From Deltaproteobacteria bacterium (lineage in GTDB: Bacteria > Desulfobacterota > Deferrisomatia > Deferrisomatales > BM512), in contig PKTT01000062.1 in NCBI GenBank assembly GCA_002869015.1, positions 26,257-90,256 on the forward strand: a stretch of 64,000 nt of DNA. The letters are read 5' to 3'. The notes below the pieces were generated by a model. It worked only from the letters and a program-made list of their open reading frames with translations, was not told the origin of the DNA and searched no databases. The position numbers were made by a program, and so were the translations under genes. Shown piece after piece: positions 40,237 through 64,000 of the stretch. Each line of letters begins with the position of its first letter. Within the stretch, counting starts at the first letter, position 1.

Positions 40237-40282
40237 TAGATACTCCTGTCATGAAAAATTCCACACGGTTTTGCCGGGGTCT

Positions 40283-42240: not shown

Positions 42241-42488
42241 TCTTCGGGTATGGGATTAATCCACTCAATTATCTCTATAGACCACGGCTTGCCAACCCAC
42301 TGCCCGCGACCTAAACGGGGCCAGAGGCGATCGCCATACTTGTCCGGGTCGGAGGATGCGCGGGCCTTAACAACCTTGCAGCAGTACTTGGCCTTGGTTG
42401 AAGCCAGATCGCGAATTATCATGTCCTGCGCCTGGTCCTGAGTGAATTCATTCAAATCGGTTAAGATAAAAGTGTCGTATTCAGCCAT
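42231..42488 (-). CDS. ppcD: Small (about 10 kDa) subunit, PpcD-like by size and position
   Basis: 85 aa with no recognisable domain. Occupies the position of the 10-kDa delta subunit of phenylphosphate carboxylase between UbiD-like genes. Confidence 0.55.
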   Translation of the reverse strand: MAEYDTFILTDLNEFTQDQAQDMIIRDLASTKAKYCCKVVKARASSDPDKYGDRLWPRLGRGQWVGKPWSIEIIEWINPIPEEWR

Positions 42489-42511
42489 CTTTGGCCTCCA
42501 TTTCCTTTTAA

Positions 42512-43960: not shown

Positions 43961-43978
43961 TCGTCGCTCCTTTTTCCT

Positions 43979-44521: not shown

Positions 44522-44544
44522 CTTTATCTCCTCTTGCCGGCGGC

Positions 44545-45957: not shown

Positions 45958-45997
45958 TGATTCCTCCTAACACCACTTCGGGTTTATGAAATAACGT

Positions 45998-46033
45998 TAT
46001 AGAAACTATAAATAAGGATTCATATATAGACAA
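45998..46033 (-). promoter_or_regulatory. Candidate sigma-70 promoter of the ppc operon (TTGTCT-17 nt-TATAGT) overlapping a LysR-type T-N11-A box
   Basis: On the minus strand the -35 TTGTCT is at 46033-46028 and the -10 TATAGT at 46010-46005. Palindromes TATAGAAACTATA (45998-46010) and ATAACGTTAT (45991-46000) lie in the ppc/lysR divergent region. Confidence 0.4.
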
Positions 46034-46092
46034 TTCAGAAGATTTAATGCTATATATAAGTATATCTTTGGTTTTGAAACACTGTTTGGAGA

Positions 46093-46992: not shown

Positions 46993-48041
46993 GGCGAAAT
47001 AAACATCCCTTCAAGGTCCAGCAGGCTTTCAAGGTAGAGGTCTGGCTTCTCGCCTTTGAGCGGCCTGTGCTCCTTCTCTCCACCTTTTATTATCGCGCAC
47101 TTAACTGATGAAGCGCGGGCGGCCTTCAAGTCGCTCATCGAATCCCCAACCATAATGGCCTTATCCGGAGATAGTGACATCAGCTCCAAAGCCTTTTGGA
47201 TACCCTCCCCATCCGGCTTCATCAGAGCTACATCGTTTCTAGTTATAATTACATCAAAGAGGCCCCGCCACTGGAAGCGGTCCAAAATTTTATCACCGAC
47301 CTCTCTGCCTATATTACTCACCATAGCGATAGGGAATTTATTTTCCTTGAGCTTCCTCAACAGCTCTTCTGCTCCGCTGCTTTCGCTCCATCTATCCAGA
47401 GCGTCATGGTCATATTTGTCATAGATGGGGCCTAAAGCAGCATCAATCCTTGATATTGCTTCACGGTCGAAACCCTCTTTAACGTAGGCGGCTTTACGGA
47501 TACCTGCGTAATCCACGTCTTTTAAGATTGCTTCATCGAAACCAAGCCCAAGGAGCGCACCTTTAAGCTCAGCCTCGGCCTCAAGAAGGTTCCATTGAAA
47601 ATCGACCAGCGTCCCTTCGAGGTCAAATATTACACCTTCAAGGTGACGATCACCCCCCCTCATCTCTAGTGAAACGGAGATCTCATCGCCATTTGAGAGC
47701 GATAGAAGATCGCGGAGGCGGTAGGGTGAGACAAGTTCAATTTTATCTGCGGGGTAATCATCGACCTCAGGTAAAACTATAACCGCCGGAACCAATCCAT
47801 TGACCCTGACCGGATAGCAGATTGCACTGCAAAAACCCGGCGCTGGTTTTACGGTGCTTGAAGAAGATACTTTGTCCCAATGATCTTTTATTGAGAGGCG
47901 ATCTTTCGAGAGAGTGAGGTTGAGAGTTCCCGGATAGGGCTCCCTTCCCAGCGCGGAAGTAAGCTGCGGCTTGACCCAGTCAAGTTCAGTAAAAAAATTC
48001 GCTTCGTTTAGCCCCTCCGACACTCTCGCCCTGAATTCCAT
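46989..48041 (-). CDS. Fusion protein: archaeal-type CTP-dependent riboflavin kinase domain (DUF120) + HAD hydrolase domain
   Basis: ORF 46989..48104. Start moved to ATG 48041 (GGGAG RBS). The N-terminal ...LGREPYPGTLNLTL... and ...KIELVSPYRLRDLLSLSNGDEISV match MJ0056-type RibK as recalled. The C-terminal HAD has motifs VIFDLEGTLVDF and MVGDSMSDLKAA. Confidence 0.7.
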   Translation of the reverse strand: MEFRARVSEGLNEANFFTELDWVKPQLTSALGREPYPGTLNLTLSKDRLSIKDHWDKVSSSSTVKPAPGFCSAICYPVRVNGLVPAVIVLPEVDDYPADKIELVSPYRLRDLLSLSNGDEISVSLEMRGGDRHLEGVIFDLEGTLVDFQWNLLEAEAELKGALLGLGFDEAILKDVDYAGIRKAAYVKEGFDREAISRIDAALGPIYDKYDHDALDRWSESSGAEELLRKLKENKFPIAMVSNIGREVGDKILDRFQWRGLFDVIITRNDVALMKPDGEGIQKALELMSLSPDKAIMVGDSMSDLKAARASSVKCAIIKGGEKEHRPLKGEKPDLYLESLLDLEGMFISP

Positions 48042-48066
48042 ATCTTTTTTCTCCCGAGAAAAACAA

Positions 48067-48090
48067 TCGGGCCCTCCAAAGAGGGCCCGA
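48067..48090 (-). terminator. Rho-independent terminator after the pps operon (hairpin usable on both strands)
   Basis: TCGGGCCCTC-CAAA-GAGGGCCCGA. On the minus strand it is followed by TTGTTTTTCT and then directly by the RBS of the ribK-HAD gene. Confidence 0.6.
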
Positions 48091-48122
48091 CTTTTTACGT
48101 GCAAACTAACGCATCAAAAACA

Positions 48123-48623
48123 TTACTCTTTCATCTCCGAGAAGACGGCATTCTCCATAGCCGCCATCTCCTCTTTCTCTCCTTCGAGCCACTCATAGGT
48201 AAAGGGCTTGGCGGTAACTCCAGGAAAGGATTGGTCCCTTGCACCCAAAAGCTCCATCTCGTAGACCATCATTTCACTTGGCTTTACAGCCTCAAGGCTA
48301 TCCTTGACTTTCTTGGCCTTGCCTTTTACCAGATAAGCAAGGTTACCATTGCCGATTATATGAACCCCTGCGAGGCCCGAGGCATTGATGTTGACAGCCG
48401 CGGTGCCTTTGGAGTCAACGGCAAACCTCAGACGCTTAGAGTCCATAGCAACTGCCCATGTATATGCTGAACTTGGGTAACCATCTGCGCCAGCAGTCAG
48501 AAGCAAGGCGGGTGCTCCAGGCTGAAGAAAACTGACTAAATTTTCGGGCATCTCTTTTAACACACCGCTCATTTCCTTACTCCTTCTATGCTTATCTATG
48601 CATTCATCGCTTAACCATCTCAT
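48123..48623 (-). CDS. Pyridoxamine-5'-phosphate-oxidase-like (FMN-binding split-barrel) protein in the ppsC position
   Basis: 166 aa. ATGA overlap with ppsB (alternative start MSGVLK at 48572). ...PALLLTAGADGYPSSAYTWAVAMDSKRLRFAVDSKGTAAVNINASGLAGVHIIG... looks like the PNPOx-like family. No CBS-domain pattern. Confidence 0.5.
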   Translation of the reverse strand: MRWLSDECIDKHRRSKEMSGVLKEMPENLVSFLQPGAPALLLTAGADGYPSSAYTWAVAMDSKRLRFAVDSKGTAAVNINASGLAGVHIIGNGNLAYLVKGKAKKVKDSLEAVKPSEMMVYEMELLGARDQSFPGVTAKPFTYEWLEGEKEEMAAMENAVFSEMKE

Positions 48624-49750
48624 TTAAAGCGTACCCCTGTGATGAGCTGGCCTACGATCCTGTCCATAGCATCCTTCTTCTTCTCCGTCTTGGCCTGGGC
48701 CTCTTTCTTGGACCAGACTGATTCAGGCCTGACCTGAAGGATAATTATGTTGGATGGGAAGGAGAGATCCCTGTCAATGCCAAACTCAATATCATAGGGC
48801 TTGCCATAATAACGATCGATGGTTTTAGAGACCTTGCACAGCTCAACGAGTTCGTCACGCTGGAGGCAGAAACGGTTGCGGTCTTCTTCGCAAACCGCCA
48901 CCTCTTTGATATCGCTACCGCCCTCGTTGTAGACGCACTGGATCTCCTTTGCCCCTTTAGTTGAGCTGATGACATCCAAGGTAACCTTGTCCAGGAGGTA
49001 GTTGTCCGGGGTCACAAGCCCGCTGACCACTGCCTCACCGAGCCCGTAGCTGACATCCACCGAGATCTTTGAGCGGTCGCCATTTAAGGGATTAAGGGTG
49101 AAGATGACACCGGATACCCTTGAATTAACCATTTTGGGCACGCCAACTCCGATGTTCAGGAGGAAGCCCATGTCTTTGTTCATCCGGTAGGTGATCGCCT
49201 CAACGTGGTATGCGCTGGCCCAGGTCTTTTTAACGTAATCGACCAGGTCTTTTTCGCCCATAATGTTGAGGTACGTTTCCATCTGACCCGGCATTGACAC
49301 TGCACCTGAAGAACGAACCGCCACCCTTAAATTCGGGACACCGGCCAAATCGCAGAGCTTTCCATACTGTGAACATATCTCGTCCACCAACACCTGCGGG
49401 ACGGTAGCGTCATTTATAAGGTCTAGGGTAAAGTCACTTGCAGCTTGACATTTTTCCACTGAAACCTCACCCAGGGAGTTTATATATTTCCCCAGCTCAT
49501 CAAGAATTCCAGTTTCACGGATAAAAATGTCATTCGCCTTAAGCGTGAGAGCGAAACCGGGGCTAATCGGAATACCAGCCTTTCGCATTTCGCCCAGATT
49601 GGCGTTTTTCTTACCAACCAGCGGGAAGTCGGAACCTTCAAGCTCCTCATACCAGAATGACAGGCTATTTTCTTTCTCAGACATGGCCATTCCCTGACTA
49701 TTTTGAAATTCATCTTCCATCATAAAAAATTTAACTTGAGCCGCTTCCAT
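48620..49750 (-). CDS. ppsB: Phenylphosphate synthase beta-like subunit (PEP synthase N-terminal ATP-binding part)
   Basis: 376 aa. DFPLVGKKNANLGEMRKAGIPISPGFALT is typical of the PEP/pyruvate-binding (PPDK_N) domain. Adjacent to ppsA. Confidence 0.8.
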   Translation of the reverse strand: MEAAQVKFFMMEDEFQNSQGMAMSEKENSLSFWYEELEGSDFPLVGKKNANLGEMRKAGIPISPGFALTLKANDIFIRETGILDELGKYINSLGEVSVEKCQAASDFTLDLINDATVPQVLVDEICSQYGKLCDLAGVPNLRVAVRSSGAVSMPGQMETYLNIMGEKDLVDYVKKTWASAYHVEAITYRMNKDMGFLLNIGVGVPKMVNSRVSGVIFTLNPLNGDRSKISVDVSYGLGEAVVSGLVTPDNYLLDKVTLDVISSTKGAKEIQCVYNEGGSDIKEVAVCEEDRNRFCLQRDELVELCKVSKTIDRYYGKPYDIEFGIDRDLSFPSNIIILQVRPESVWSKKEAQAKTEKKKDAMDRIVGQLITGVRFK

Positions 49751-49753
49751 TTC

Positions 49754-51610
49754 TTATGCCCTCTCTACGATGACTACGCTGCCCTGATCGCCATCAATCC
49801 TTATGGTGTCACCGGTCTTGATTACTGATGTTCCGTTGCCTGTGCCAACAACAGTGGGCAGGCCATACTCACGGCAAACAATAGCCGCATGGCACATTGC
49901 GCCGCCCACGTCGGTTATGCAGCCGGCAATCTTGGTGAAGGCAGGTGCCCAACTCGGCGAAGTAGTGGTTGCGACAAGTATCTCTCCTTCTTTGAGATCG
50001 GCGAGGCCCTCTACGGTCTTGATGACGCGAGCCTTACCCTCGACCAGCCCTGAGGAGCCGGGTGAGCCCATAAGCTCGTCGGATGGGGCGCCTACGGCTG
50101 CTTCCATGCCCTTAAGCCAGTTCTTCAACGTACCTGTGGTGACGCCCCAGAGCATAATGCTGAAGGGCTCTGTTACGACATCCGGGGGGGTACCAAGGGC
50201 TGGCGGGGGAGTCCACTCCTGGAATTTAGCGATAACGCCCTTGCGCCACTCCAACTCCTTGCCCCAATAGGAGGGACCAAGGGATTTCACGCCGGTAGCC
50301 CAAGCTGTTACGTAATCCCAAAGGGCTTCTTTGATCTCGCCGCGCTTCATAAGCCAAATCTCTTCACGGTCTTTAATGAAGCCGGCAGAAACGAGTATGT
50401 CTGCGACCTGGCGCATCTTGTTCCAGAAGACGGAGTGGAACCAGTTCTCTACGTAAAAGCAGTGGTCCTCGACGTAGGGGAAGACTTTTTTAGCCATGCC
50501 AAGGGCCTGCTCGAAGGCAACGCGATCCTCGTCGTTGTCGATAAGAGCCATGTACTCTTCAACGATCTTTTCGCTCTCTGCCAGCAGTTTCTCAGTGGGG
50601 CGACCGACCTCTTTGCCAGCATTGATCGCGTCAATGTGCATGCGAATGGAGGAGAAGGGAATGTTCAGGTCGTCATTCCAGGACTTATGGTGGTGATACC
50701 ACCCAGTGCCTGTTGAGACCCAGAACCAGGGATAGCGGGATTTTTCAAGCTCATCCAGCCAGTATTTTCCGGCGCTGCTTTTTTCAAGCGCCGCCATCAT
50801 TTCCGTTGCATCCCTCTCTATAAGGATCTCATCAGCAAGGTTCTCCTCAATTGCGAGCTTTGCCAGCCTGATTAGCTCAGCATCAGGACGGTAAAGAACG
50901 ACATCAATGCCGGAGACCATCTTTGTCAGTGTAGAAATCGGAATATCGGGGAAAATTGAGTTTGCCGTGTTGATGAAGGTAAGGTAAGCGGCATAGCCCA
51001 GATTCAAGAATTCAAAGTGGTACTGCCAAATAGTCAGCCCCATGTTGATGAGCTCGTCGTACTCGGTCAGCAGATGATATCCGCTGCCGGTGCCCTTATT
51101 CTCAAAGACAACGCTCTCATCCTCAACCTCGGGAAGAGGCTTGAAGGAGACTGCTTCAAGGTCCGAAAGGAGCTTGTTTACCTTCACCTTCCATTCGGCA
51201 TAAAGGGAATCCCAGTTTTCATAATAGTAACCTGCGCGCTTCATGAATACGGGGACACGCTCGCCGATCTCTTCAGGATCGGCCACGCCAACTGGAGTTA
51301 TGTAGACATAACCGTTAACGACTCTGTGGTCTATTCCATTTGCCGGGGGCATAAGAAACGTACGAGTGTTATTCTGCGAAAGCGCCAGGTACCATGCTTC
51401 ATCCCAAATAAGGTCGAAGGGATAATGGGGCTCCGGGTAATGGAGGCCATCATAGAACCAAAGCTGTTCATCCTCATACTTACCCCTTTCGGGGTCTTCT
51501 TTTGAGAATTGGTAGTTGTAGGGATACATGCGCTCCCAACCCTCGGTGCCAGGAATCGTCGGAATGTCATGGGGGCTCTTGAATTTTCCGCTCACTGTGT
51601 TCCTCCTCAT
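49754..51610 (-). CDS. ppsA: Phenylphosphate synthase alpha-like subunit (central/His-domain part of PEP synthase)
   Basis: 618 aa. C-terminal PEP-utilising mobile domain GEILVATTTSPSWAPAFTKIAGCITDVGGAMCHAAIVCREYGLPTVVG. Size is about 70 kDa, as for PpsA. Confidence 0.8.
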   Translation of the reverse strand: MRRNTVSGKFKSPHDIPTIPGTEGWERMYPYNYQFSKEDPERGKYEDEQLWFYDGLHYPEPHYPFDLIWDEAWYLALSQNNTRTFLMPPANGIDHRVVNGYVYITPVGVADPEEIGERVPVFMKRAGYYYENWDSLYAEWKVKVNKLLSDLEAVSFKPLPEVEDESVVFENKGTGSGYHLLTEYDELINMGLTIWQYHFEFLNLGYAAYLTFINTANSIFPDIPISTLTKMVSGIDVVLYRPDAELIRLAKLAIEENLADEILIERDATEMMAALEKSSAGKYWLDELEKSRYPWFWVSTGTGWYHHHKSWNDDLNIPFSSIRMHIDAINAGKEVGRPTEKLLAESEKIVEEYMALIDNDEDRVAFEQALGMAKKVFPYVEDHCFYVENWFHSVFWNKMRQVADILVSAGFIKDREEIWLMKRGEIKEALWDYVTAWATGVKSLGPSYWGKELEWRKGVIAKFQEWTPPPALGTPPDVVTEPFSIMLWGVTTGTLKNWLKGMEAAVGAPSDELMGSPGSSGLVEGKARVIKTVEGLADLKEGEILVATTTSPSWAPAFTKIAGCITDVGGAMCHAAIVCREYGLPTVVGTGNGTSVIKTGDTIRIDGDQGSVVIVERA

Positions 51611-51675
51611 AGGTTTTTAAGACTTAGTATGATTTAGCGTTTGGTAATGGTTTTAAAAAATAAGTATTAATAACG

Positions 51676-52323
51676 CTAAAGCCTGAACCAGCGAGGCTTA
51701 TCAAAGCGCTCGGTGGTCTTGAGTATTTTGCTGTTGAAGTTCTCTCCGCAGCTCTGGTTCATTTCATGGGTGAGTTCCTTGAAGACCTCGCTCCCGAGAA
51801 ACATCCCGATATCCACAGGATCCTTGAAGGTGAGCTCCAAGAGGACTTCGCTGAAACCGCCGATTAAGATGTTCCACTCTCTTGTGAAATCAACGTAATC
51901 GAGCTTGTCAATTGCAGGTATAAACTCGTTTTCCATGAAATCGTCGTAGCACTTTTCCTTACCTGGGCGGATATCGAAGTACTGGTTGAATTTCCAAACG
52001 CCCTCTTGGATTGAATACTTTTCAGGACCAAACTTGCGCTTTTGGACAAGCACTCTGGAGGTGTACTGGGAGACTAAAGCTTTGAGGTCTGACTTTATCT
52101 CCTCGAATTCCTTGGAAGCGAGGATGGTAAAAAGCTGCTGTATGGTATCGACGCTTTTTACGGAAATGATTCTTGGTCCCTGGCCTGACATGACATAAAA
52201 ACCGCCAACCGAGTTAAACCCCAACTCGTTGCTCCTCGGGATGTATGATTTTGAGATAAAATGCTCGTATTCATCCTCTGAACCTGGCAATACGTTCCAG
52301 CTCTGGGTGAACAACAGCGACAT
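51676..52323 (-). CDS. Hypothetical protein made of two homologous ~100-aa halves; first gene of the pps operon
   Basis: ORF 51676..52356. Start moved to ATG 52323 (AGGAG RBS). Internal duplication is visible by eye. No recognised family. Confidence 0.55.
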   Translation of the reverse strand: MSLLFTQSWNVLPGSEDEYEHFISKSYIPRSNELGFNSVGGFYVMSGQGPRIISVKSVDTIQQLFTILASKEFEEIKSDLKALVSQYTSRVLVQKRKFGPEKYSIQEGVWKFNQYFDIRPGKEKCYDDFMENEFIPAIDKLDYVDFTREWNILIGGFSEVLLELTFKDPVDIGMFLGSEVFKELTHEMNQSCGENFNSKILKTTERFDKPRWFRL

Positions 52324-52454
52324 CTCGTTCTCCTTTCGACCTTGGTGGCTTCTCAAAAGACCGGCTTAGCCTGATATAGAGAGCCAGTTAAACACTTTTC
52401 ATATCTCCCGCCTGAGCCACAAAGGTGCACTCAAGGGAATGGGAGTTTTCTAAA

Positions 52455-52469
52455 GCAAAAGGTGTGCCC
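52455..52469 (-). promoter_or_regulatory. Sigma-54-type promoter candidate for the pps operon (GGGCAC-N5-TTGCT)
   Basis: The minus strand reads gGGCACaccttTTGCTt, matching TGGCAC-N5-TTGCW except for the first T. Lies about 130 nt upstream of ATG 52323 and downstream of the OMP-gene terminator. Confidence 0.5.
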
Positions 52470-52585
52470 CTCTAGTGATAACAACGTTTGCGCAATAGTT
52501 TTTCCTATCCAGACAAGGTTTTTACGCATAAATGCGTCACCGGTGTCGCAGGTCGGCCTTTTATTTTAGAATGCTGTTTTATATT

Positions 52586-52617
52586 GAGAAAAACAGTGCG
52601 ACAGGGTTGTCGCACTG
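52586..52617 (-). terminator. Rho-independent terminator of the outer-membrane channel gene
   Basis: Perfect 10-bp stem CAGTGCGACA-GGGT-TGTCGCACTG, followed on the minus strand by TTTTTCTC. Confidence 0.65.
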
Positions 52618-52722
52618 CCATTTTGGGCAAAAAAAGAGCGCCGACAAGGACGGAAGACTATCCCTGTCGACGCTCCTGGCCAAAAACCACTATGTATTTA
52701 TGGCCCGCAGCTAATTAGTTTT

Positions 52723-53673
52723 TTAGAACGCTACTATGGCCTTAAGCCATGTCTGGCTACCTTCAGGCATATTCTCGGCGCCATATTCCTGCATATGCTT
52801 TAACACTACCGAGTAGCGCCCCTTATTGGGCCACCACTTGATAGCAGGGCCTATGCCGGCGATTTTGCACTTGGAGTCGTCAAGCTCCTGGCCCTCAAAC
52901 TCGTCGTCAGTTACCTGCTCATAGTAAAAGCCGTTGACGCCAAATTCCCAGTCGCCGTACATGTAGCCGATCGCGTAGTCGAAATGGAACTCATCGCCCG
53001 GATCTAGGGTGCCCTTCTCGCCGCCCATGACGTAGTCGTCGTTGTCAGTGTTGATGTCATACATAAGCTTTAAAGAGAAGTCCCAATTGCCGGCCAGGTA
53101 GGTCATTGCGACTACAGGCTCAAAGGTCCAGTGGTTGCGGCTGAGAAGCTGCGTTGACGGGTCATCCTCGTCATAATTTCCGGTTGGAACGTAGGTGTCG
53201 ACTGTCGCTACAAGATGAAACTGGGGGCTGAAATGCCAACCCAGGATAAATGGGCTGATTATGATATCCCCGAGTCCGGCTGAGTCTTCATTGACCAGGG
53301 TGTCACCGCCGGCCTTGACCTCGACATCGGCGCTATAGAGGGGCACAAAGATGTGCGCCGCCCATGAGGCGCCAAGGATCTCCTTGTCGCTGACGTAGAT
53401 GAAACGTGGAACCTCAGCGATTACGCCTGCGTCGAAATCGACCGGGACCTTGTCGCCATCGGCATCCCTAAGCTCGTCCTTACTAATGTATCCAAGGTAG
53501 TTGATAAAATAATTTCCCGGCGGAGGGAGGATGCCAACGACGAAGTCCTCTGCCCCATTGGGGTAGTGCTGCCCACCTATGGCGAACGCCTGCCCGGAGG
53601 CTATAAATGATACGACAACAAAGATTATTGCTCCCATCGTGGTACTAAAATTAAATGATAATTTTTTCCGCAT
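52723..53673 (-). CDS. Outer-membrane beta-barrel channel of the 'MetA-pathway of phenol degradation' transporter family
   Basis: ORF 52723..54078. Start moved to ATG 53673 (AAGGA RBS, signal peptide MRKKLSFNFSTTMGAIIFVVVSFIASGQAFA). N-terminal HYPNGAEDF...PPPGNY pattern, alternating beta-strand sequence and a C-terminal Phe. Confidence 0.7.
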   Translation of the reverse strand: MRKKLSFNFSTTMGAIIFVVVSFIASGQAFAIGGQHYPNGAEDFVVGILPPPGNYFINYLGYISKDELRDADGDKVPVDFDAGVIAEVPRFIYVSDKEILGASWAAHIFVPLYSADVEVKAGGDTLVNEDSAGLGDIIISPFILGWHFSPQFHLVATVDTYVPTGNYDEDDPSTQLLSRNHWTFEPVVAMTYLAGNWDFSLKLMYDINTDNDDYVMGGEKGTLDPGDEFHFDYAIGYMYGDWEFGVNGFYYEQVTDDEFEGQELDDSKCKIAGIGPAIKWWPNKGRYSVVLKHMQEYGAENMPEGSQTWLKAIVAF

Positions 53674-53765
53674 AACTCTGTCCTTTCGCTTGAAGAGTCT
53701 CGGCCGCAGCGGCCAAAATAATGAATGAAGATATAAATGCTTCTTGCGTATTTGATAATTAGTGA

Positions 53766-53780
53766 GCAAAAAGCAGGCCA
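53766..53780 (-). promoter_or_regulatory. Sigma-54-type promoter candidate for the outer-membrane channel gene (TGGCCT-N5-TTGCT)
   Basis: The minus strand reads TGGCCTgctttTTGCT with correct GG/GC spacing, about 93 nt upstream of ATG 53673. Confidence 0.4.
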
Positions 53781-54147
53781 ACACAGATAAAACATGATTT
53801 TCCGGGGATGTTATCTCTTTTGAATTATGCTTGGAGGGATTTACTGACAAAAACACGTCACTCTTGTCGCATAAAATCATCCGCCCTCCTCTGTGTGCGC
53901 AAAAAAATCCTTCTGCCAGGAAAAAGAAATTCTTAGCCCAGACAAAAAATTTCCAAAAAATAAAAGTAGCTAGCTTAAAAAAAGCGCCAGAGGCTACCTG
54001 CCCATGGCGCAAATTTTTTCGGCGGGAAAATGCTACCGAATTGGTAAAAGTCAAAAACAGCCCGCTAAGACCCATCAATGGTCCATATCAGGTCTTTCGA
54101 CCAGAGAGGATACTTGACATTAGTTCGCGTGCCTTTCCGCTGGCTGG

Positions 54148-55449
54148 CTATGGCGACTTTATCTTTTCAAATGCACTTCCGCCTCCTGATGTTGCGTCAA
54201 ACCCAACCTTTGAGCCCTCAGCGCTACCTGCCGACGACGTATCGATGACATACCCCTCAAGGCCAGTCATCATTACCATGTCTCTTTCAGGGTTAAAACG
54301 GGTTGCAAGGGCCCACGACACCTCACGGGCATCCCGCGGGTTCACATCGTCATCCACAACAGTGAGAACCTTTAAGCGGCGGTCGATACTTAGCGCGTGG
54401 TATATCAGACGGCGCACCTCAGTTGATTTCATACCTGAAACCGAACAAATTGCCTTGAAACCACAAGTTCCGGGCTCCATTTCGAGATCCACAACACCAT
54501 GGAATAGCGCCTGGAGTTGACTAAGGAGCTCCGTGCCCGCAGCAAGGGAGAGCAGATTGTCAACCTCGCGGGTCCACGGGCAGAGGCCGGGGTAGAGAAT
54601 CTCTTCACGGCGGGTTAACAGCCCAATCTCTATAACAGGGCTCACATTCGTGAAGTAATTGCCGCTGTTTTCACCAAAGGGGCCCTCACTTTCACGTATC
54701 CCGGGCAATATCCGTCCCTCCAGGATGACTTCGGCAAAAGCGGGCACTTTGAGATCAACGCTCTTACAGCGGCAAAGCTCCAGAGGAAGCCCCCTTAACG
54801 CGCCGGCAGTTTCAAACTTCTCCGGCCCACCGGGACCGACCTTCACAACGGAGGCCAAAATAGTCGCGGGGTCTGCGCCCAAAATAACCGCCACTTCAAG
54901 CGGGCGTTTTTCACGCTCTGCATTTGCAATAAAATGAGTCATCGGTGGAGTGGCCGCGAGCATTCCCAACCGGTTTGGCCCGTGCACCATCATTCTGTGA
55001 ATGCCCAGCGCACCCTTTGTACCATCAGGGTCTTTAGCTACAACCAACCCTGAAGTTATATAGGGGGCTGCATCACGCTCGTGGTGGGTAAGGATTGGGA
55101 GCTCTTTCAAAAGGTCTATATCCTCGCCAATTACAACCTGCTGCACCGGCGGGGCGCCCTTAAAGTCAACCGGTGGCAGCCCTTGGACCTTTCTCTCTAT
55201 ATACGTCTTTGCCAGATCCTTTTCAGTCGTCTCAAGGGCAACTGCTGCCAACTTACGGCTACCAAAAAGATTACCGGCGATCTTTGCACGGTCATAGCCC
55301 TTTACGTTCTCAAAGAGAACTGCACATCCGGTGTCCTGCGCTTCCCTGAGGAGGGCGGCTACCTCAAATTGCGGGTCTAACGGCTCTTCGACCCTTATGA
55401 GGTCATCATCAATCTTTTGGAGGTACCCGCGTAAATCCCTGTATGACAT
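54148..55449 (-). CDS. UbiD-family decarboxylase/carboxylase, short type (fourth paralog in the window)
   Basis: 433 aa with a UbiD core (GALGIHRMMVHGPNRLG, AEVILEGRILPGIRESEGPFGENSGNY). Confidence 0.85.
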   Translation of the reverse strand: MSYRDLRGYLQKIDDDLIRVEEPLDPQFEVAALLREAQDTGCAVLFENVKGYDRAKIAGNLFGSRKLAAVALETTEKDLAKTYIERKVQGLPPVDFKGAPPVQQVVIGEDIDLLKELPILTHHERDAAPYITSGLVVAKDPDGTKGALGIHRMMVHGPNRLGMLAATPPMTHFIANAEREKRPLEVAVILGADPATILASVVKVGPGGPEKFETAGALRGLPLELCRCKSVDLKVPAFAEVILEGRILPGIRESEGPFGENSGNYFTNVSPVIEIGLLTRREEILYPGLCPWTREVDNLLSLAAGTELLSQLQALFHGVVDLEMEPGTCGFKAICSVSGMKSTEVRRLIYHALSIDRRLKVLTVVDDDVNPRDAREVSWALATRFNPERDMVMMTGLEGYVIDTSSAGSAEGSKVGFDATSGGGSAFEKIKSP

Positions 55450-55553
55450 CTAAAAACCTTTCACCTGAAGCTGTAGAACTCCGGGCTTAAAATCAATTGA
55501 ACCAAATATTTTTTTGTCATCACATTAAGCAGTAAAATAATTCTATGTATAAA

Positions 55554-56153
55554 TCACCCGGCAGAAACTTTAAGAGCAGCCTTTCTTGCCTCAAGCTCAT
55601 CAAGCGCCAATCTTTTACCGGAGGCCGTGAGAAACCAGCCCTTCAGCTCCTCGCTCAGCCTGGTGATATTTTCCTCAACGGAAATTGAAAAACGTTTTGG
55701 GTCTACCTCTTGCGCATCAGCGGAATATCGCCAAAGCTTATCAGCATCTTTAATTACAGCCTCCTCGATGGATTCGGCAAAGGCACCCGAATCGTGCCTG
55801 GAGATGATTTTCACAATTGCCGCTGTCTTTGCTTCGGGATAACCCAAATTCGAGAGTATAAGCTTCGCTATCTTTGCGCCTTCTTCTTCATGCAGGTCCC
55901 TCAGCTCGGGCCTCGTTGCCTTGGGGCCGAAGGCCGATGTTTGCAGATCCTCTGGCACAGCACTCCATCCGGTATCATGCAAAATAACCCCGGGAATTAT
56001 TACTTCTTCATCGCCACCCTCAAGCTTAATTAGCTTAAAAGAAAACTCCAATGCTATCTTGGTGTGTATTTCATTGTGCCTCGTCATCAAATATGGCTGG
56101 GCAACACGGTAAATGTTTTTGTAGATATCTTTAACAAACAAATTGTTATCCAC
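55554..56153 (-). CDS. HD-domain phosphohydrolase (paralog of 33688..34290)
   Basis: 199 aa. H...HD (HTKIALE...GVILHDTGW) and DADKL motifs. Collinear similarity to the other HD protein. Confidence 0.75.
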   Translation of the reverse strand: MDNNLFVKDIYKNIYRVAQPYLMTRHNEIHTKIALEFSFKLIKLEGGDEEVIIPGVILHDTGWSAVPEDLQTSAFGPKATRPELRDLHEEEGAKIAKLILSNLGYPEAKTAAIVKIISRHDSGAFAESIEEAVIKDADKLWRYSADAQEVDPKRFSISVEENITRLSEELKGWFLTASGKRLALDELEARKAALKVSAG

Positions 56154-56319
56154 TTTCTAAATTTTATCTAAACAGCTTTAGCTAAGATATTCGCACCAGA
56201 AATGAACAGGCAACTATGATGGCTTTAATGTGGAGGAAAGGAGGTCATTCTCCTACACAGTTAAAACCACCACAGTTGCCTTTGTTAAACTACTTCAATA
56301 AACGCCGGATGTATATCGG

Positions 56320-57321: not shown

Positions 57322-58206
57322 ATGAATTTTCATCAGCTCAAAGTATTTTATGAAGCGGCTAAACTTCTAAGCTTTACTAAAGCGGCAGAAGTCCTTTGCG
57401 TCTCCCAGCCAGCGGTAACCGCCCAGATTCGTGCTCTTGAAGAAGCATCCGGAACTAAATTATTCAACAAAAGAGGGTCGCGATTAACCCTGTCCGAGGC
57501 GGGGGTGATTTTGATTCAATATGCCCACAAAGTATTTGAGCTCGAGTTTGAGATGGAGATGGCATTAGATGACTTTCTAAGCCTTAAGCGCGGTCTGCTA
57601 AGGGTTGCGTCGACAAAAACTTATGCACGGTACGTTATGCCCTCGGTCATCTCAAAATTTCGCGAGCGCTATCCCTCAATCAAGGTTGTCTTAGACGAGG
57701 GAAGCTCACGCTACGTTTGCCGCACACTTTTAGAGATGTTCAATGAAATTGGGGTATTGGGAGTTTCTGGTGAGGTCGAAGGCCTTCAATTTACGCCCTT
57801 TAAAGAGGAAGAGGTATGCCTCTTTGCATCGCCTTGTCATCCCCTTTGCAGAGATGAGCCCATCCACCTTGAAGAGCTGACAGATGAGCTGATTATAATG
57901 CGCGAGGAGGGCTCTACCCTACACTCTATAGTCATGGACTGCTTCAAAAAGAGCGGCCTCTCGCCGACGGTTTTGCTCCAAACAAGCAACTCCGACCTCA
58001 TAAAGGAGATGGTGGCAAAAGGTGAAAGCGTCGCCTTCCTTGTAAAAAGCGCCCTTGAGGAAGAGCTGTCCTCTGGAAAACTCGTACTTATTCCAATTAA
58101 AGATCAAACCATGAAGATAAAGGTGTGTAGCGCAAATCTTTCGGAGGCCAACTTATCACCAGCAGCTCAAGCATTTTTGGAAATTCTACATTTAGAAGCC
58201 AACTGA
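57322..58206 (+). CDS. LysR family transcriptional regulator (paralog of 46093..46992)
   Basis: 294 aa. HTH FHQLKVFYEAAKLLSFTKAAEVLCVSQPAVTAQIRALEEA. Divergent from the SatP-like/HD/UbiD genes across a 380-nt AT-rich spacer. Confidence 0.9.
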   Translation: MNFHQLKVFYEAAKLLSFTKAAEVLCVSQPAVTAQIRALEEASGTKLFNKRGSRLTLSEAGVILIQYAHKVFELEFEMEMALDDFLSLKRGLLRVASTKTYARYVMPSVISKFRERYPSIKVVLDEGSSRYVCRTLLEMFNEIGVLGVSGEVEGLQFTPFKEEEVCLFASPCHPLCRDEPIHLEELTDELIIMREEGSTLHSIVMDCFKKSGLSPTVLLQTSNSDLIKEMVAKGESVAFLVKSALEEELSSGKLVLIPIKDQTMKIKVCSANLSEANLSPAAQAFLEILHLEAN

Positions 58207-58385: not shown

Positions 58386-58426
58386 GACAAAATAAAAAAC
58401 GCCTCGGACAAACTGTCCAAGGCGTT
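58386..58426 (-). terminator. Rho-independent terminator immediately 3' of the tRNA-Ala fragment
   Basis: AACGCCT-C-GGACA-AAC-TGTCC-A-AGGCGTT hairpin, followed on the minus strand by GTTTTTTATTTT. Confidence 0.65.
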
Positions 58427-58434
58427 GATTTTAT

Positions 58435-58484
58435 TGGTGGAGCTGATCGGGATCGAACCGACGACCTCTTGAATGCCATTCAAG
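58435..58484 (-). pseudogene. Truncated tRNA-Ala(GGC): 3' 50 nt only (anticodon arm, variable loop, T-arm, acceptor 3' strand, CCA)
   Basis: The minus strand reads CTTGAATGGCATTCAAGAGGTCGTCGGTTCGATCCCGATCAGCTCCACCA, nearly collinear with the 3' half of E. coli tRNA-Ala(GGC) as recalled. No D-arm or 5' acceptor strand lies upstream. Confidence 0.7.
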
Positions 58485-58691
58485 AATGCCAATTGTTATT
58501 TATTAATCTTTTCATTTACTTACAGAAACTATACCTTACTAGCCAAGCAAATAGCCAAGCAAAATCACACCGCCATTTACCTTAAGAGCATGGGTTATCC
58601 ATCCCACCAACCCAACTGAACTAAACTCACCTAACTCAATGATTCTAAATTTTTCTGAGATATGATCTGAAAAAGTTTTTTCATGCCCGTT

Positions 58692-58725
58692 AAAAAAAGG
58701 GGCCCGGCAGATATGCTGCCGGGCC
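58692..58725 (-). terminator. Rho-independent terminator of the giant repeat-protein gene
   Basis: GGCCCGGCAG-ATATG-CTGCCGGGCC hairpin, followed on the minus strand by CCTTTTTTTAAC, 25 nt after the stop at 58750. Confidence 0.65.
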
Positions 58726-58749: not shown

Positions 58750-61700
58750 TTAAGGTGTTGAGAGGTCATCTATTGTGTAATAGAGGGTCAAGTAACTATA
58801 TTTGCTGTTGTTACCCTGCCAAATGGTAAAGTCATGAGACTGCTGCCCCAAATCCCATCCAACTACCGAGTTCCAAGTCTCAGATATAGTTAATAATGCG
58901 ATGTCGTCATCGTTAGTCGGCTCACTGTCCCTGTCACTTATACTCAGCTCTAACTCCAGATTTGAGCTTACTGTCTGCCCAACCCAAAAATCTCTCGTCC
59001 ATGAAGGGCTTGGATACCACGAGTTACCGTTCTCCACGTTTACGTCGTCCCACGTATTCACGTAACCCACAGCCAGGTCAGCTTGCACATCGCACCACCC
59101 GAAAAACTCGATGCTGTTATCATCACCCCAAGCATCATCGTTTGCCGTACTTAGATAGACACGGTCCACGGTTATCCTAACCTGGGCAAAGCGGAATGGA
59201 ACCTTTACAAACTCGCAGAAGACTAGCTTCTCATCACCGTAAAAATCAACCTGGACGTAAGCGTAGTAGACGTAGTCAATGTCCGACATGGCCGGGTTGT
59301 CGGTGAAAGTCGTCGCCGTCGGCGCTACTGTTTGGGCAACCCTCGTCCACCCCGATCCGGGACCGGTCCAAGAGGGAAAGTCCGACACATCGGTGGGAGG
59401 CATCGGCGCCGGGGGCACCTCTCCCGCCGATTGTTGGTACCTCAGGAGTACAATATTGGTCACGTTAGCTGGGTCCACGATGCTCCAGGTCAGGTCGACG
59501 TCGTATATCTGAGAGCCTGTGGTATTGTCAACCGAGGTAGTGGCTGCCAGCCCGGTGATCAGGTAATCCGCGTCAGGAATCGTCGGATCTGGGTCAACGT
59601 CATCCTGAAGGAAGTCTAGGTCAGTGTCGAAGTGATAGGGGTCCGCTGCCTCCCTCTCCAAAGTGTCGCTTCTTACGTTGGCGTACTCGAAGTAATCAAA
59701 GAGGCCGTCGCCCTCGGAATCTGCGACGAGGGGGTTGGAGAAGTAGATGAACTTAAGCTCCTGCGGAGTGCCCGCAGGGTAGTCGTAGCGATCCCATCCA
59801 CGTACTTCGTCGAAATCGGAGAGTCCATCCGCATCGGTGTCAGGGTTAAAGGGATCCGTGCCCCAGAGGTACTCCTCACGTTCACCAAGGCCGTCGAGGT
59901 CGGTGTCAGCGCAGTATACCAGGGTTAAGACATCCCCCGCCCGGAGCTTAATCTGGTCGACAGTAAGCCCTTCAAAATCCGCCGAGGTGGAGAATCGCCA
60001 CGCCCCGTCGGTGGGAACGGGATTGCTTGCCCTACCGTCAACCAGTTCCACTGGGTAGTCGGGAGCCGGAACACCGTCAGTGACGGTGAAGGGAGTCGCA
60101 GTGGCGGTGAAGGGTATTTTAAGGAAATGCCCTGCAGTGTCGAAGACCTCGCCCACCGTCACACCGTAGAGGGAAGGGTCGACATAGTAGTCGAGGTTGG
60201 TGGCGACCCTGTAGCTCTCCATGGGCCTGTCAAAGCCGTAGTCGATAGAGACGAGCGCCGTCTTCGCCATTACGTCGGTGAGGTTGTGGTTGAAGGCGCG
60301 ACCCAGCGCGTCGGTGAGCTCGTAGCTCGATGGCTGGACTATGAGACTCCGCGAATCGGAGAGAAGGTCCAGGGTCGTACCTAGGTCAAGCTCTGCTGCG
60401 AAGACCCAGCCCTCTATCCTTTGGCCAGGGCCAAGGGTCGTTTGGGGAAAATCGCCTACACTAACGTCCAGTTCTAGGTTCGCCACCGGGAGGAACTCGC
60501 CCGGCGAGTTCTGCGAAGGTACGAAGGCAGATAGAATTAGGTTGTCAATGGTAAAGGCGATGTCCCCCCGATTCTCCACGTTCAACGTCACCTGTATCAG
60601 TCCACCGGAGTAGTCTTCCTGGTTTGCCCTGGCATTTTCGTACGCCTCGCGGTGTTCGTTTGTTTGCTCGTCGGTCCAGCTGTGGGATACGGAGCCCGTA
60701 ACTGAGCCGCCACTGGGGATATACCCTTCGAATTCGACCTCTACCTCCACCCCGACCTCGGTTGTCTCGGAATGTGTGTCGGAGGACGAGTCCTCAATGG
60801 TGGTACTTGTAGACTCTGTTGTCCCTGTGGTGTAGACGAGTAAGATCTGCGGAGAGCAGCCAAACTCGATCCCAATCTCCGGGAGGTCGGCTATGAGGGG
60901 ATTGAAGCGGTAGTTGTCCTGAAGAGGGTTGAAGCCCAACTCTATGATCTCCCGCCCGTCTGAAAGGCCGTCACCGTCAGTGTCCATGTGAGAGGGCGAT
61001 GTTGAGTAGTGGTTGACCTCCATGAAGTCGGTGAGGCCGTCACCGTCGCTGTCGACGTCAGCGGCGGCGTTTACGCTTATAGAGACCAGCGGGGTAGCGA
61101 CGCCCCCGCGCCCGTCCTCCACCGTCACGGTGAAGTAGTCCGGCCCAACGAAGTCAACATCGGGCTGGTAGGTGAAGGTGCCTTCTCCATGGTTTAAAAT
61201 CGAGCCGCCCTCCAGCGAGGCCAGCGGCGAGTTGAAGAGTAGGACGTCACCGTCACCATCGGTGGCGTAGACCTCGAAGGTTATTGAATCACCCTGCTCG
61301 ATGGAGAGGTTCACGTCGAGGGCCACCGGCACGTCGTTGACCGGAGATACGTAGACCGTAACCTCGCCGATGGCCTGTGCGCCGCCAGCGTCCTGAAGCG
61401 TGTATCCGAAGGTGTCGGTCCCGTAGAAATTTAGCGGCGGCGTATAGGTGACAAGTCCAGTGGCACCGTCCAGGGTCAGCACCGCCCCGGCCTCAGAGAT
61501 AAAGTCGACGTCTACCACACCAAAGATGTCGCCCTCCGGGTCGCTGTCGTTTGCAGCGAGGTTAAGGCCCGCCGCCGGGGTGTCTTCATTGGTTGATACC
61601 ATATCGGGGTTAGCGCTGGGCGCATCGTTCACCGGTGTTACCGTCACAGTGACGGTGGTGGTGGCGAAGCCGAGCCGCCCGTCGGTTATCGTGTAGGTGA

Positions 61701-64000
61701 AGGTGTCGACGCCGTTGAAGTCAGCGAGGGGAGCGTAGGTGAAGGTGCCGTCACCATTGTTTATTACCATAGCACCCACCGCGGAGTACGGGTCGGAGGT
61801 GAGGACGGAGACGAGGTCGCCGTCGGCGTCGGTGTCGTTAATGAGTACGTAGGGCACCAGGAGGGGGTTGTCCTCCGGCCCGGAGGTTGAATCGGGGTTG
61901 GCGACCGGCGGATCATTGACCTCGTTGACGGTGATGGTCACCGTCGCCGAGTCCGTGTTCCCGCCCGCATCCTCAATAGTGTAGGTGAAGGTGTCGATGC
62001 CAAAAAAGTTGCCCGCAGGCGTGTAGAGGAAGACACCCCCCAACTCCGTGACCGTTCCTCCACCCGCGCTGATTGGGTCGTGGGTGAGAAGGGAGACTGG
62101 GTCAATGTCGGGGTCGTAGTCATTGGAGAGTGCGGCAATGAGGACGGAGGTGTCCTCTGAGGCGAGGGCGGCGTCATCCACCGCCACCGGGTCGTCATCC
62201 ACGGGGGCAACATCTATAGTTACCTCCACCGAAGAGCTGAGCGCCCCGGTCTCGTCCACCAGGGTGTATCTGAAGAGGTCCGCGCCGAAAAAGTCATCCC
62301 CGGGGGTGTAGGTGAAGACCCCCGCACCGTGGTAAGTCAGGACCCCGCCGCCGAGGGTTGACGTGGGGAAGCCCACGACGGTGAGGGTGTCGCCATCAAC
62401 GTCGTAGTCGTTGGTGAGTACGGAGAAGACCACCGCCGTTTCCTCGTCGGTTGCAAAGACATCCGCTATTCCGACGGGCGCGTCGTTTGCAGGTGTCACC
62501 GTTACTGTAACAGTCCCGGAGGAGGAGCCTGTAGTACCGCCGTCCTCGCTGACGGTATAGGTAAAGGTGACCACGCCGCTGAAGTCAGCGTCGGGGACAA
62601 AGCTAAGGGAGTTGCCGCTCTGGCTCACCGTACCGCCCGCGGGGGCCGCGTCGAAGTAGTAGATGGTAAGTACGTCGCCGTCGCCGTCGAGATCGTTGGC
62701 GAGCACGTCAATGGTCACCCCTACTCCATCCTCGGCGACGCTCCCAAAGTCAGGGTTTGCTATTGCCGTGTCGGCCACCGGGAGGACTTCCACCGTGACA
62801 ATGGCGGAGCTCGTCCCCCCGTTGCCGTCTGTGATGATGTAAGAGAAGGTGTCTATGCCGTTCCAGTTCGCGGCAGGGGTATAGAGGAAAGAACCCCCAC
62901 CGCTGTGGGCCACTTTGCCGCCACCGAGGGTGAAGTTGTCGTAACCCCCGATGGTCAACGTGTCGCCATCGGCGTCGGAGTCGTTCATGAGGACGCTGGA
63001 AGTAACGACCGCCATGTCCTCATAAGTTGCCGACGCGTCAGGTGCCGCCACTGGGGCGTCGTTCACAGGGAGGACCGTCATAGTGACCAGTCCGTAGGCT
63101 GCAGCCCCGTGGGGGTCGGTCACCGTGGTGGTGAAGTAGTCTGTGCCGTGAAAGTTCTCCGCCGGAGTGTAGATATAGGTGCCGGCAGGAGACTCCACCA
63201 CCGAGCCGCCTGTGGCGGTCACCACGTCGGCTGCGAGGGTGAGGGTGGCGTAATCGTCGTCAACATCGCCTGCCCTTGGGAAGAGCTCTCCCTCAGTGAG
63301 GGTTATCGCGATGTCCTCGGGGGTGCGCCGGGATAGATCGCCGACTACAGGTGCGTCATTTACCGGGTTGACCGTAACGTGGGCCACCGCGTCGTCGAAG
63401 CCCCCGTTGCCGTCGCTCACCGTGTAGGCAAAGCTATCCGGACCGAAGAAGTCGACCGGCGGAGTATAGGTGAAAGTGCCGTCGCCCAGCCCCTCCACAA
63501 AGCCGCCCGCCGCGGAGACGCCGGAACAGCTCGAGACCGTGAGAGTGTCGCCGTCGATGTCAGTGTCATTGGCGAGGACGTTGCCGGTTACGGTGGGTTG
63601 TTCCTCCATCGTAACTGCTATCGCCAGATCGTCGGTCGCCACCGGCGAATCGTTCGCAGAAGTCACCGTAAGGTGGACCTCTACCTCCACAGAGCCACCC
63701 TGACCGTCGATGACGGTTACGGCGAACATATCCTCACCGTTGTAGTCGCCGAGAGAAGTGTAAAAGAGGTCAGGGCTTGCGATAGAGTACGCGCCGCCGA
63801 AAGCTGTGGTCCCCACCTTGTCCACCAACTCCAGGGTGCCGCCATCAAGGTCGGTGACATGGTCAAGGACATCATCTATCAGGTAGTCGACGGAGTCCTC
63901 TGGGAGCGTTACGTAGAGGGGGTCTGCGGTGGGCACGTCGTTGACGGAGATTACGTCGATGGTAACCGTCGCCATGTCAGTGAGCCCCGCGCCGTCGGAG
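58750..64000 (-). CDS. Giant extracellular repeat protein (tandem ~95-aa cadherin/Ig-like domains + thrombospondin-type-3 Ca-binding repeats), C-terminal 1749 codons; N-terminus beyond the window
   Basis: The ORF is open to the window edge, and the frame upstream of the annotated M at 63975 continues without a stop (..SDGAGLTDMATVTIDV). At least 10 units are delimited by (V/A)xD(A/V/S/P)P motifs. DxDxDGxxDxxE repeats (DSDGDGLTDFME, DTDGDGLSDGRE, DTDADGLSDFDE) are present. Confidence 0.85.
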   Translation of the reverse strand, partial: SDGAGLTDMATVTIDVISVNDVPTADPLYVTLPEDSVDYLIDDVLDHVTDLDGGTLELVDKVGTTAFGGAYSIASPDLFYTSLGDYNGEDMFAVTVIDGQGGSVEVEVHLTVTSANDSPVATDDLAIAVTMEEQPTVTGNVLANDTDIDGDTLTVSSCSGVSAAGGFVEGLGDGTFTYTPPVDFFGPDSFAYTVSDGNGGFDDAVAHVTVNPVNDAPVVGDLSRRTPEDIAITLTEGELFPRAGDVDDDYATLTLAADVVTATGGSVVESPAGTYIYTPAENFHGTDYFTTTVTDPHGAAAYGLVTMTVLPVNDAPVAAPDASATYEDMAVVTSSVLMNDSDADGDTLTIGGYDNFTLGGGKVAHSGGGSFLYTPAANWNGIDTFSYIITDGNGGTSSAIVTVEVLPVADTAIANPDFGSVAEDGVGVTIDVLANDLDGDGDVLTIYYFDAAPAGGTVSQSGNSLSFVPDADFSGVVTFTYTVSEDGGTTGSSSGTVTVTVTPANDAPVGIADVFATDEETAVVFSVLTNDYDVDGDTLTVVGFPTSTLGGGVLTYHGAGVFTYTPGDDFFGADLFRYTLVDETGALSSSVEVTIDVAPVDDDPVAVDDAALASEDTSVLIAALSNDYDPDIDPVSLLTHDPISAGGGTVTELGGVFLYTPAGNFFGIDTFTYTIEDAGGNTDSATVTITVNEVNDPPVANPDSTSGPEDNPLLVPYVLINDTDADGDLVSVLTSDPYSAVGAMVINNGDGTFTYAPLADFNGVDTFTYTITDGRLGFATTTVTVTVTPVNDAPSANPDMVSTNEDTPAAGLNLAANDSDPEGDIFGVVDVDFISEAGAVLTLDGATGLVTYTPPLNFYGTDTFGYTLQDAGGAQAIGEVTVYVSPVNDVPVALDVNLSIEQGDSITFEVYATDGDGDVLLFNSPLASLEGGSILNHGEGTFTYQPDVDFVGPDYFTVTVEDGRGGVATPLVSISVNAAADVDSDGDGLTDFMEVNHYSTSPSHMDTDGDGLSDGREIIELGFNPLQDNYRFNPLIADLPEIGIEFGCSPQILLVYTTGTTESTSTTIEDSSSDTHSETTEVGVEVEVEFEGYIPSGGSVTGSVSHSWTDEQTNEHREAYENARANQEDYSGGLIQVTLNVENRGDIAFTIDNLILSAFVPSQNSPGEFLPVANLELDVSVGDFPQTTLGPGQRIEGWVFAAELDLGTTLDLLSDSRSLIVQPSSYELTDALGRAFNHNLTDVMAKTALVSIDYGFDRPMESYRVATNLDYYVDPSLYGVTVGEVFDTAGHFLKIPFTATATPFTVTDGVPAPDYPVELVDGRASNPVPTDGAWRFSTSADFEGLTVDQIKLRAGDVLTLVYCADTDLDGLGEREEYLWGTDPFNPDTDADGLSDFDEVRGWDRYDYPAGTPQELKFIYFSNPLVADSEGDGLFDYFEYANVRSDTLEREAADPYHFDTDLDFLQDDVDPDPTIPDADYLITGLAATTSVDNTTGSQIYDVDLTWSIVDPANVTNIVLLRYQQSAGEVPPAPMPPTDVSDFPSWTGPGSGWTRVAQTVAPTATTFTDNPAMSDIDYVYYAYVQVDFYGDEKLVFCEFVKVPFRFAQVRITVDRVYLSTANDDAWGDDNSIEFFGWCDVQADLAVGYVNTWDDVNVENGNSWYPSPSWTRDFWVGQTVSSNLELELSISDRDSEPTNDDDIALLTISETWNSVVGWDLGQQSHDFTIWQGNNSKYSYLTLYYTIDDLSTP
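61070..64000 (-). repeat. Array of at least 10 tandem ~95-aa domain repeats within the giant gene
   Basis: Boundaries fall at VNDVP, ANDSP, VNDAP, VNDAP, VADTA, ANDAP, VDDDP, VNDPP, VNDAP and VNDVP. Each unit contains a D-x-D-G-D Ca-like motif and an F-x-Y-T-(V/I)-x-D core. The repeats are diverged at the DNA level. Confidence 0.7.

Follow-up and report, generated by a model that had tools for sequence, protein, structure and literature searches.

A displaced tRNA-Ala(GGC) 3' fragment as the probable boundary of an integrative element in a Deferrisomatales-like genome

The tRNA-Ala(GGC) fragment and its immediate surroundings

Our analysis of the window, by which we mean the whole stretch of 64,000 nucleotides, centers on a short interval between a LysR-family regulator gene and the gene for a large repeat-containing adhesin, where the 3' half of a tRNA-Ala(GGC) gene lies on the minus strand. 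Contigs from ENA (92,181 bp), JGI and Logan contain the same DNA and extend it 6.5 kb past the window's end; window and ENA contig show 12 differences in 15,251 overlapping bases. The features of the interval are listed below in window coordinates.

57322..58206, plus strand: LysR-family regulator gene, convergent with the fragment and the last gene of the conserved metabolic (chromosomal) flank
58398..58426, minus strand: intrinsic terminator after the fragment, with a 13-bp stem, a 3-nt loop and the T-run TTTTTTATTTT
58425..58434, minus strand: the 10 nt 3' of the CCA, ATAAAATCAA, common to the tRNA locus of metagenome contig L003 (GTAAAATCAA) by alignment in a blastn block
58435..58484, minus strand: 3' fragment of a tRNA-Ala(GGC) gene (tRNA positions 27-76), probably displaced
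58484..58491, minus strand: second copy of TGGCATTC (plus strand GAATGCCA), abutting the fragment's 5' edge
58540..58563, no strand assigned: two tandem copies of the 12-mer TAGCCAAGCAAA in the AT-rich spacer, on the presumed element side of the fragment
58701..58725, minus strand: terminator of the adhesin gene, with a 10-bp stem containing 9 G-C pairs
58750..64000, minus strand: C-terminal 1741 codons of a 2387-aa cadherin-like/Big_9 repeat adhesin (putative island cargo), whose gene extends past the window

The fragment is a 50-mer, CTTGAATGGCATTCAAGAGGTCGTCGGTTCGATCCCGATCAGCTCCACCA, read on the minus strand from 58435-58484, which occurs once in the window and had 0 matches in shuffled sequences. 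It comprises a 5-bp anticodon stem (CTTGA/TCAAG) closing the loop ATGGCAT, with the anticodon GGC, followed by the variable loop AGGTC, a T arm (GTCGG-TTCGATC-CCGAT), the 3' acceptor strand CAGCTCC (with U70), the discriminator A and CCA. It is a tDNA end-fragment that reaches the tRNA 3' end, not an internal piece. The 5' acceptor strand and the D arm are absent from the locus, leaving no functional cloverleaf, and a search of the window for a tRNA-Ala 5' half with up to 3 mismatches allowed found none. ARAGORN called 0 tRNAs and 0 tmRNA in the window, and Rfam at gathering thresholds gave no match at the fragment.

The identification, first made in an earlier note from the letters of the sequence, holds up against an intact gene. 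L003 carries a complete tRNA-Ala(GGC), called by ARAGORN and scoring 62.3 bits against the Rfam tRNA model, and the fragment matches its 3' half, with no 5' half, save for a one-base indel in a contig that is error-prone. The blastn alignment of window positions 58425-58484 is a 60-nt block of 96.7% identity whose homology ends upstream exactly at the first base of the anticodon stem; beyond this break, L003 goes on into the D arm and the window into unrelated AT-rich sequence. The 10 nt that the block shares beyond the CCA may belong to a conserved trailer of the tRNA or, alternatively, extend the att identity block. Based on the fragment, an intact partner tRNA would be expected to read CTTGAATGGCAT...CCACCA(ATAAAATCAA).

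Matches to the segment are scarce. A metagenome scan returned two short contigs with an intact tRNA-Ala(GGC) and the same anticodon arm, one of them L003; both come from another sample, and the fragment's own JGI source contig is evidently not part of the collection. A reference-genome scan for the tRNA 3' half, which left the T stem free but required an encoded CCA and hence possibly excluded genomes without one, gave 0 hits, as did the same pattern in the viral collection. No match was found in the E. coli collection, and the window is not enterobacterial.

The terminator that the earlier note placed after the fragment is present, and fragment and terminator fold together with z = -4.8 against shuffles. 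We interpret the hairpin as the original chromosomal tRNA terminator. It is bordered by an A-run and, opposite, by a T-run, is found 190 nt past the end of the convergent LysR gene, and on the plus strand exchanges one G-U pair for an A-C mismatch. The hairpin may thus be bidirectional, stopping convergent LysR transcripts as well.

Could the fragment serve as an RNA in its own right? Compared with a functional tRNA it has not decayed; it folds well when joined to its strong terminator and, under permissive settings, gave a weak match to the tmRNA model, the only clan-related Rfam match, in which only the tRNA-like 3' end was aligned. One may consider a 3' minihelix for read-through adhesin transcripts, a tRNA-half-like small RNA or a tmRNA-like piece. 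We regard such a role as exceedingly improbable, given that a strong terminator belonging to the adhesin gene itself lies 215 nt upstream of the fragment and that promoter-like sites at the fragment are no commoner than in shuffles, none of them convincing. An identity as tmRNA (ssrA) was rejected: the score of 12.9 bits is far below the gathering threshold of 47, ARAGORN is silent, and the anticodon arm is a normal GGC arm. The perfect anticodon-arm palindrome, the T arm, the acceptor strand, the CCA and the position between two terminators could still suggest more than an inert scar, namely a tRNA-like 3' processing or stability element for riboswitch-controlled adhesin read-through, or a landing pad still competent for incoming elements; we consider this very doubtful. 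The fragment is probably inert now, with its terminator still usable.

Two short repeats lie next to the break. The 8-nt direct repeat of the earlier note is present at 58471-58478 and 58484-58491, the first copy of GAATGCCA being anticodon-loop/3'-stem sequence. In 2.2% of flank shuffles, an 8-mer of the fragment recurs at a distance of up to 30 nt from it, a frequency that is suggestive but not compelling. The tandem 12-mer also exists, at 58540-58563, with no further exact copy in the 70.5-kb composite, where the only match with one mismatch falls at an unrelated site (37667-37678). As a guess, the tandem TAGCCAAGCAAA might represent arm-type integrase binding sites.

Stable and variable DNA on the two sides of the fragment

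The low-coordinate side (1-58.2 kb) contains solely genes of metabolism, transport and regulation. They encode phenylphosphate-synthase-like proteins, four UbiD-family proteins and one UbiX-like protein, CoA ligases, aldehyde:ferredoxin oxidoreductase, Hdr/Nuo-like electron-transfer proteins, an RND efflux system and a sigma-54 two-component system. These 58 kb are free of integrase, transposase and phage genes. Positions 38900-56200 form a dense cluster for anaerobic phenol/aromatic-acid degradation, in which the phenylphosphate-synthase-like proteins (PPDK_N and PEP-utilizer), the four UbiD-family paralogs and the UbiX-like flavoprotein are accompanied by a Phenol_MetA_deg outer-membrane protein, a CoA ligase and two LysR regulators.

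The LysR protein that flanks the fragment is identical to the product of locus tag C0608_11380 in a 'Deltaproteobacteria bacterium' MAG, and the tag that follows, C0608_11385, belongs to the adhesin, with no annotation between the two. The nearest relatives of the LysR protein are proteins of Deferrisomatales MAGs with 69-71% identity. A pair of a YaaH-like gene and the LysR gene is conserved in the related loci L006 and L007, and synteny stops downstream of LysR. In the three nearest LysR relatives (58-71% LysR identity), no tRNA lies downstream of the gene and the region after it is different in each, which fits a boundary between stable and variable DNA. An empty site, with an intact tRNA-Ala beside the LysR gene, was found in none of the LysR relatives, all of which are too distant (58-71%) to reveal one, and a reference-genome scan with the LysR neighbour found no relative.

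On the high-coordinate side, the order from the fragment is the adhesin gene, a c-di-GMP-I riboswitch in its leader, a lipoprotein gene, an AlpA-family gene and a primase-helicase gene. This mosaic runs about 8-12 kb past the fragment, partly outside the window, where its features were located on contig L008.

L008 4326-4401 (plus), window coordinates 66102-66177 (minus), outside the window: c-di-GMP-I riboswitch
L008 2659-3765 (plus), window coordinates 66738-67844 (minus), outside the window: predicted lipoprotein gene, 368 aa, between the adhesin and alpA genes
L008 221-1923 (minus), window coordinates 68580-70282 (plus), outside the window: frameshifted Prim-Pol/PriCT_1/AAA_25 primase-helicase gene

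The adhesin gene, about 7 kb long with a GC content of 0.59, has no close relatives in the database besides itself. The riboswitch (RF01051) scores 57.9 bits against a gathering threshold of 35 and lies about 200 nt upstream of the adhesin start. The lipoprotein, encoded at a GC content of 0.40, matches neither Pfam nor PHROGs. The AlpA-family protein matches Phage_AlpA in Pfam (E = 5e-18) and is described as 'excisionase and transcriptional regulator' in PHROGs; its gene adjoins that of the primase-helicase, in which Pfam recognizes Prim-Pol (2e-44), PriCT_1 (9e-8) and AAA_25 (1e-15 and 2e-9), in agreement with PHROGs. Such a pairing of alpA with a Prim-Pol, PriCT_1 and AAA_25 primase-helicase is of the kind carried by satellite-like integrative elements.

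A single frameshift, located at a G-rich run in the helicase part, breaks the primase-helicase reading frame. The homolog P0244 aligns to it in two reading frames, as residues 8-360 and then 359-553, and the same truncated product of 355 aa is recorded in the NCBI, JGI, ENA and Logan assemblies. The frameshift junction is identical in three assemblies, which may share reads.

The composition check called for in the earlier note bears out a difference across the fragment, with the high side forming a mosaic that departs from the backbone in both GC3 and tetranucleotide usage. GC3 is 0.33 in the lipoprotein gene and 0.72 in the adhesin gene versus 0.49-0.70 in the backbone, and tetranucleotide distances are 246-559 on the high side versus 155-236 over window positions 1-55.5 kb. 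The alpA and primase genes have ordinary GC content, and the deviant composition of the adhesin gene could stem from its repetitive amino-acid content. Three sharply different compositions lie side by side. They would also suit a hot spot with several independent acquisitions, comprising the adhesin with its riboswitch, the low-GC lipoprotein, a satellite-like replication module and a repeat; the element behind the att scar would then predate, or differ from, that of the AlpA/primase module and might be largely gone. Signs of decay, namely the frameshift and the repeat at the contig break, are compatible with such a history, as is the documented occurrence of tandem and composite islands at a single tDNA (PMC4383910). 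We consider it unlikely overall, though the strongest rival to a single element: the internal boundaries of successive islands should show a second att-like tRNA fragment, and no such fragment or other tRNA-like sequence exists between the first one and the contig end.

Every assembly stops about 12 kb past the fragment, at a repeat starting with TGACCTGCCCCC. It begins about 165 nt after the helicase ORF, and three assemblies end 30-104 nt into it, the Logan contig exactly 30 nt in.

L010 5692-5796; L009 11867-11923; L011 2794-2823: assembly ends within the TGACCTGCCCCC sequence

In L010, an ORF starting with MARKRYRPEE follows TGACCTGCCCCC. We take the two to be probably the end of a multicopy IS, which may belong to the IS3 family. 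The TGACCTGCCCCC sequence has no match in plasmids or viral contigs and no further copy in the composite. Up to this point, neither an intact tRNA-Ala(GGC) nor, judged by the Pfam gene tables, an integrase domain occurs in the 12 kb past the fragment; tblastn of two related integrases against the 70.5-kb composite gave no hit, and blastx of the stretch between the adhesin stop and the fragment, run for an integrase remnant, returned only noise-level matches. Capsid, packaging and integrase genes are likewise absent from the available high-side sequence, in which the contig end may truncate the unit.

Proposed integration at tRNA-Ala(GGC) and the evidence from related elements

Integration into tDNA leaves a regenerated tDNA and a displaced fragment at the ends of the island (PMC4383910). 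Fragments of the 3' type mark 3760 of 3919 islands, with anticodon-centred sites in 2083, and such a fragment shares the orientation of the intact tDNA and follows it downstream (PMC4383910). Given this orientation, the island should lie on the 5' side of our fragment, that is, on the high-coordinate side. The fragment's 5' limit falls at a recognised crossover sublocation, of the anticodon loop/stem class, the other classes being the T loop and the T/acceptor junction (PMC4383910).

In conjunction with the contents of the two flanks, we propose that the fragment is the distal boundary of an integrative element in tRNA-Ala(GGC), with the adhesin, the lipoprotein and a decaying AlpA/primase module on the island side, and assign this reading a probability of about 0.65. 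The element would have recombined with the chromosomal tRNA-Ala(GGC) gene at the anticodon loop by means of a tyrosine integrase, and the tRNA 3' half that it carried would have restored a working tRNA at the opposite end, with the original 3' half and its terminator left beside their old downstream neighbour, the LysR gene. The inserted DNA would extend to higher coordinates over at least 12 kb, including the adhesin gene with its riboswitch, the lipoprotein, AlpA and primase-helicase genes, and the element would be in decay, judged from the frameshifted primase-helicase and the repeat that interrupts the DNA beyond. Under this model, we interpret positions 58435..58484 as the core and B' part of an attR-type site. 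We infer that the scar is the work of a tyrosine integrase and that the adhesin and the primase module were cargo of one element; the integrase and the intact tRNA would presumably lie beyond the contig end.

The earlier note had proposed an att scar with the inserted DNA, including the adhesin, at higher coordinates. The scar is favored by the end-fragment, its canonical crossover limit and a precedent in a related element described below, and is weakened by the lack of an integrase and an intact tRNA in the 12 kb at hand. The polarity finds support in the AlpA and primase-helicase genes, which lie on the high side and have no counterpart in the 58 kb of the low side; the adhesin is a putative part of the cargo.

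A tRNA pseudogene could also arise without site-specific recombination, if the 5' half was lost through deletion or through illegitimate or IS-mediated rearrangement, or, as a variant, if the fragment were the remnant of a regenerated tRNA with the island on the low-coordinate side. Such an origin would account for the integrase and partner tRNA missing from the available 12 kb, and a repeat, maybe an IS, lies in the neighbourhood. We nevertheless hold it improbable. The break falls exactly at the anticodon-stem boundary and keeps the full palindromic core, and a random break would come within 2 nt of that boundary about 7% of the time. Related elements make copies of the same extent, and the 58 kb of the low side are devoid of mobile-element genes and end in synteny with relatives.

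What do relatives of the primase-helicase reveal about their attachment sites? Full-length homologs have 560-620 aa and at most 42% identity. The most informative case is a 10.4-kb element between an intact tRNA-Glu(TTC) and a second, approximately 50-nt copy of the tRNA's 3' part.

L014 3768-14247; L015 51-10530: element with a capsid gene, HTH genes, a primase-helicase and a tyrosine integrase that overlaps the att copy

The copy in L014 spans the tRNA from shortly before the anticodon stem up to the discriminator, matching the window fragment in extent. Another element, in L099, has as its boundaries a 20-nt repeat located at the rpsI 3' end, and its integrase is convergent with the intact target gene. 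L012, L014 and L096 have the integrase on the strand of the primase-helicase, 1-5 kb farther downstream, a distance that at the window locus corresponds to the stretch beyond the contig break. In several viral contigs, the integrase is upstream of and divergent from the primase, and among 80 viral loci with related primases, few of which have tRNAs or flanks, integrase placement varies.

The L014 tRNA runs parallel to primase and integrase, and that of the window locus would be antiparallel to them, an arrangement that none of the few relatives compared here displays directly. The window locus would be compatible with an integrase immediately beyond the break and, after it, an intact tRNA-Ala in convergent orientation; this combined layout occurs in no single relative examined. 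The orientation of the tRNA relative to the primase, unlike that in L014, and the adhesin and lipoprotein genes beside the fragment, where L099-type relatives have an integrase, add some weight to separate acquisitions. Since integrase placement varies widely among the relatives, geometry is a weak argument for separate elements, and we retain a single element with its boundary at the tRNA fragment as the preferred reading.

Known systems and relevance for metagenome-assembled genomes

Williams is said to have described the island signature of tDNA fragments in 2002, as cited in the Islander paper. Like the islands found by Islander (PMC4383910), the locus combines a fragment of about 50 nt that spans from the anticodon stem to the tRNA 3' end with mobile-element genes on the fragment's 5' side and ordinary chromosome on its 3' side. 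It differs from them in that the regenerated tDNA, to be expected 2-200 kb upstream of the fragment in the same orientation, and the tyrosine integrase are not seen, with the assemblies ending 12 kb away. In the scheme of Islander and Williams, the anticodon-centred class is the 'A' sublocation (PMC4383910).

Small satellite-like or PICI/P4-like integrative elements with AlpA or HTH_17, a Prim-Pol/PriCT_1/AAA_25 primase-helicase and a tyrosine integrase, represented by L014/L015 and L099, share with the locus an AlpA-type gene immediately upstream of a primase-helicase of the same architecture (35-42% identity) and, in the case of L014, a tRNA 3' copy of the same extent. Unlike these elements, the window locus has no capsid, packaging or integrase genes in the available sequence, its primase-helicase is frameshifted, and its cargo would consist of a 7-kb adhesin gene and a lipoprotein gene. 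We have not filed the locus as a member of a satellite family.

Partial tRNA genes produced by integration are pervasive and often mishandled in annotation (PMC9897764). The window fragment resembles such attR sites in being a tRNA fragment, attributable to integration, that adjoins foreign DNA; unlike them, it is too short for tRNA calling, so that ARAGORN and Rfam are silent and the fragment is unannotated. It is an ordinary instance of a known and well-understood type of scar, and changes nothing in existing knowledge of tRNA-targeted integration.

The relevance of the fragment lies in its position. It supplies an edge, precise to the base, at which a conserved gene cluster for anaerobic phenol degradation gives way to a variable region in the genome of an uncultured deltaproteobacterium that is Deferrisomatales-like, and suggests that a 2387-aa adhesin under the control of a c-di-GMP riboswitch was acquired by horizontal transfer. 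Recognition of such fragments can also help annotation and island mapping in metagenome-assembled genomes, in which sequences this short stay unannotated.

Two observations from the compared loci are of separate interest. In L096/L097 (ENA ERZ2916587 NODE_74), two to three tandem elements of about 9.1 kb, each with a primase-helicase, a sigma factor and an integrase, lie upstream of the ylxM-ffh-rpsP operon, at a site with no tRNA. In L003 (JGI contig Ga0124853_1367510), positions 380-1193, directly upstream of the tRNA-Ala(GGC) gene, hold 10.3 tandem copies of a 79-nt unit with 98% matches. Each unit consists, in order, of the 5' acceptor strand and D arm of tRNA-Ala, a mini hairpin, part of the variable loop and T stem, and 30 unrelated nt. 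The units are not recognised by Rfam and fold no better than shuffles; the array may be a real, tRNA-derived one or an assembly artefact of this error-prone contig.
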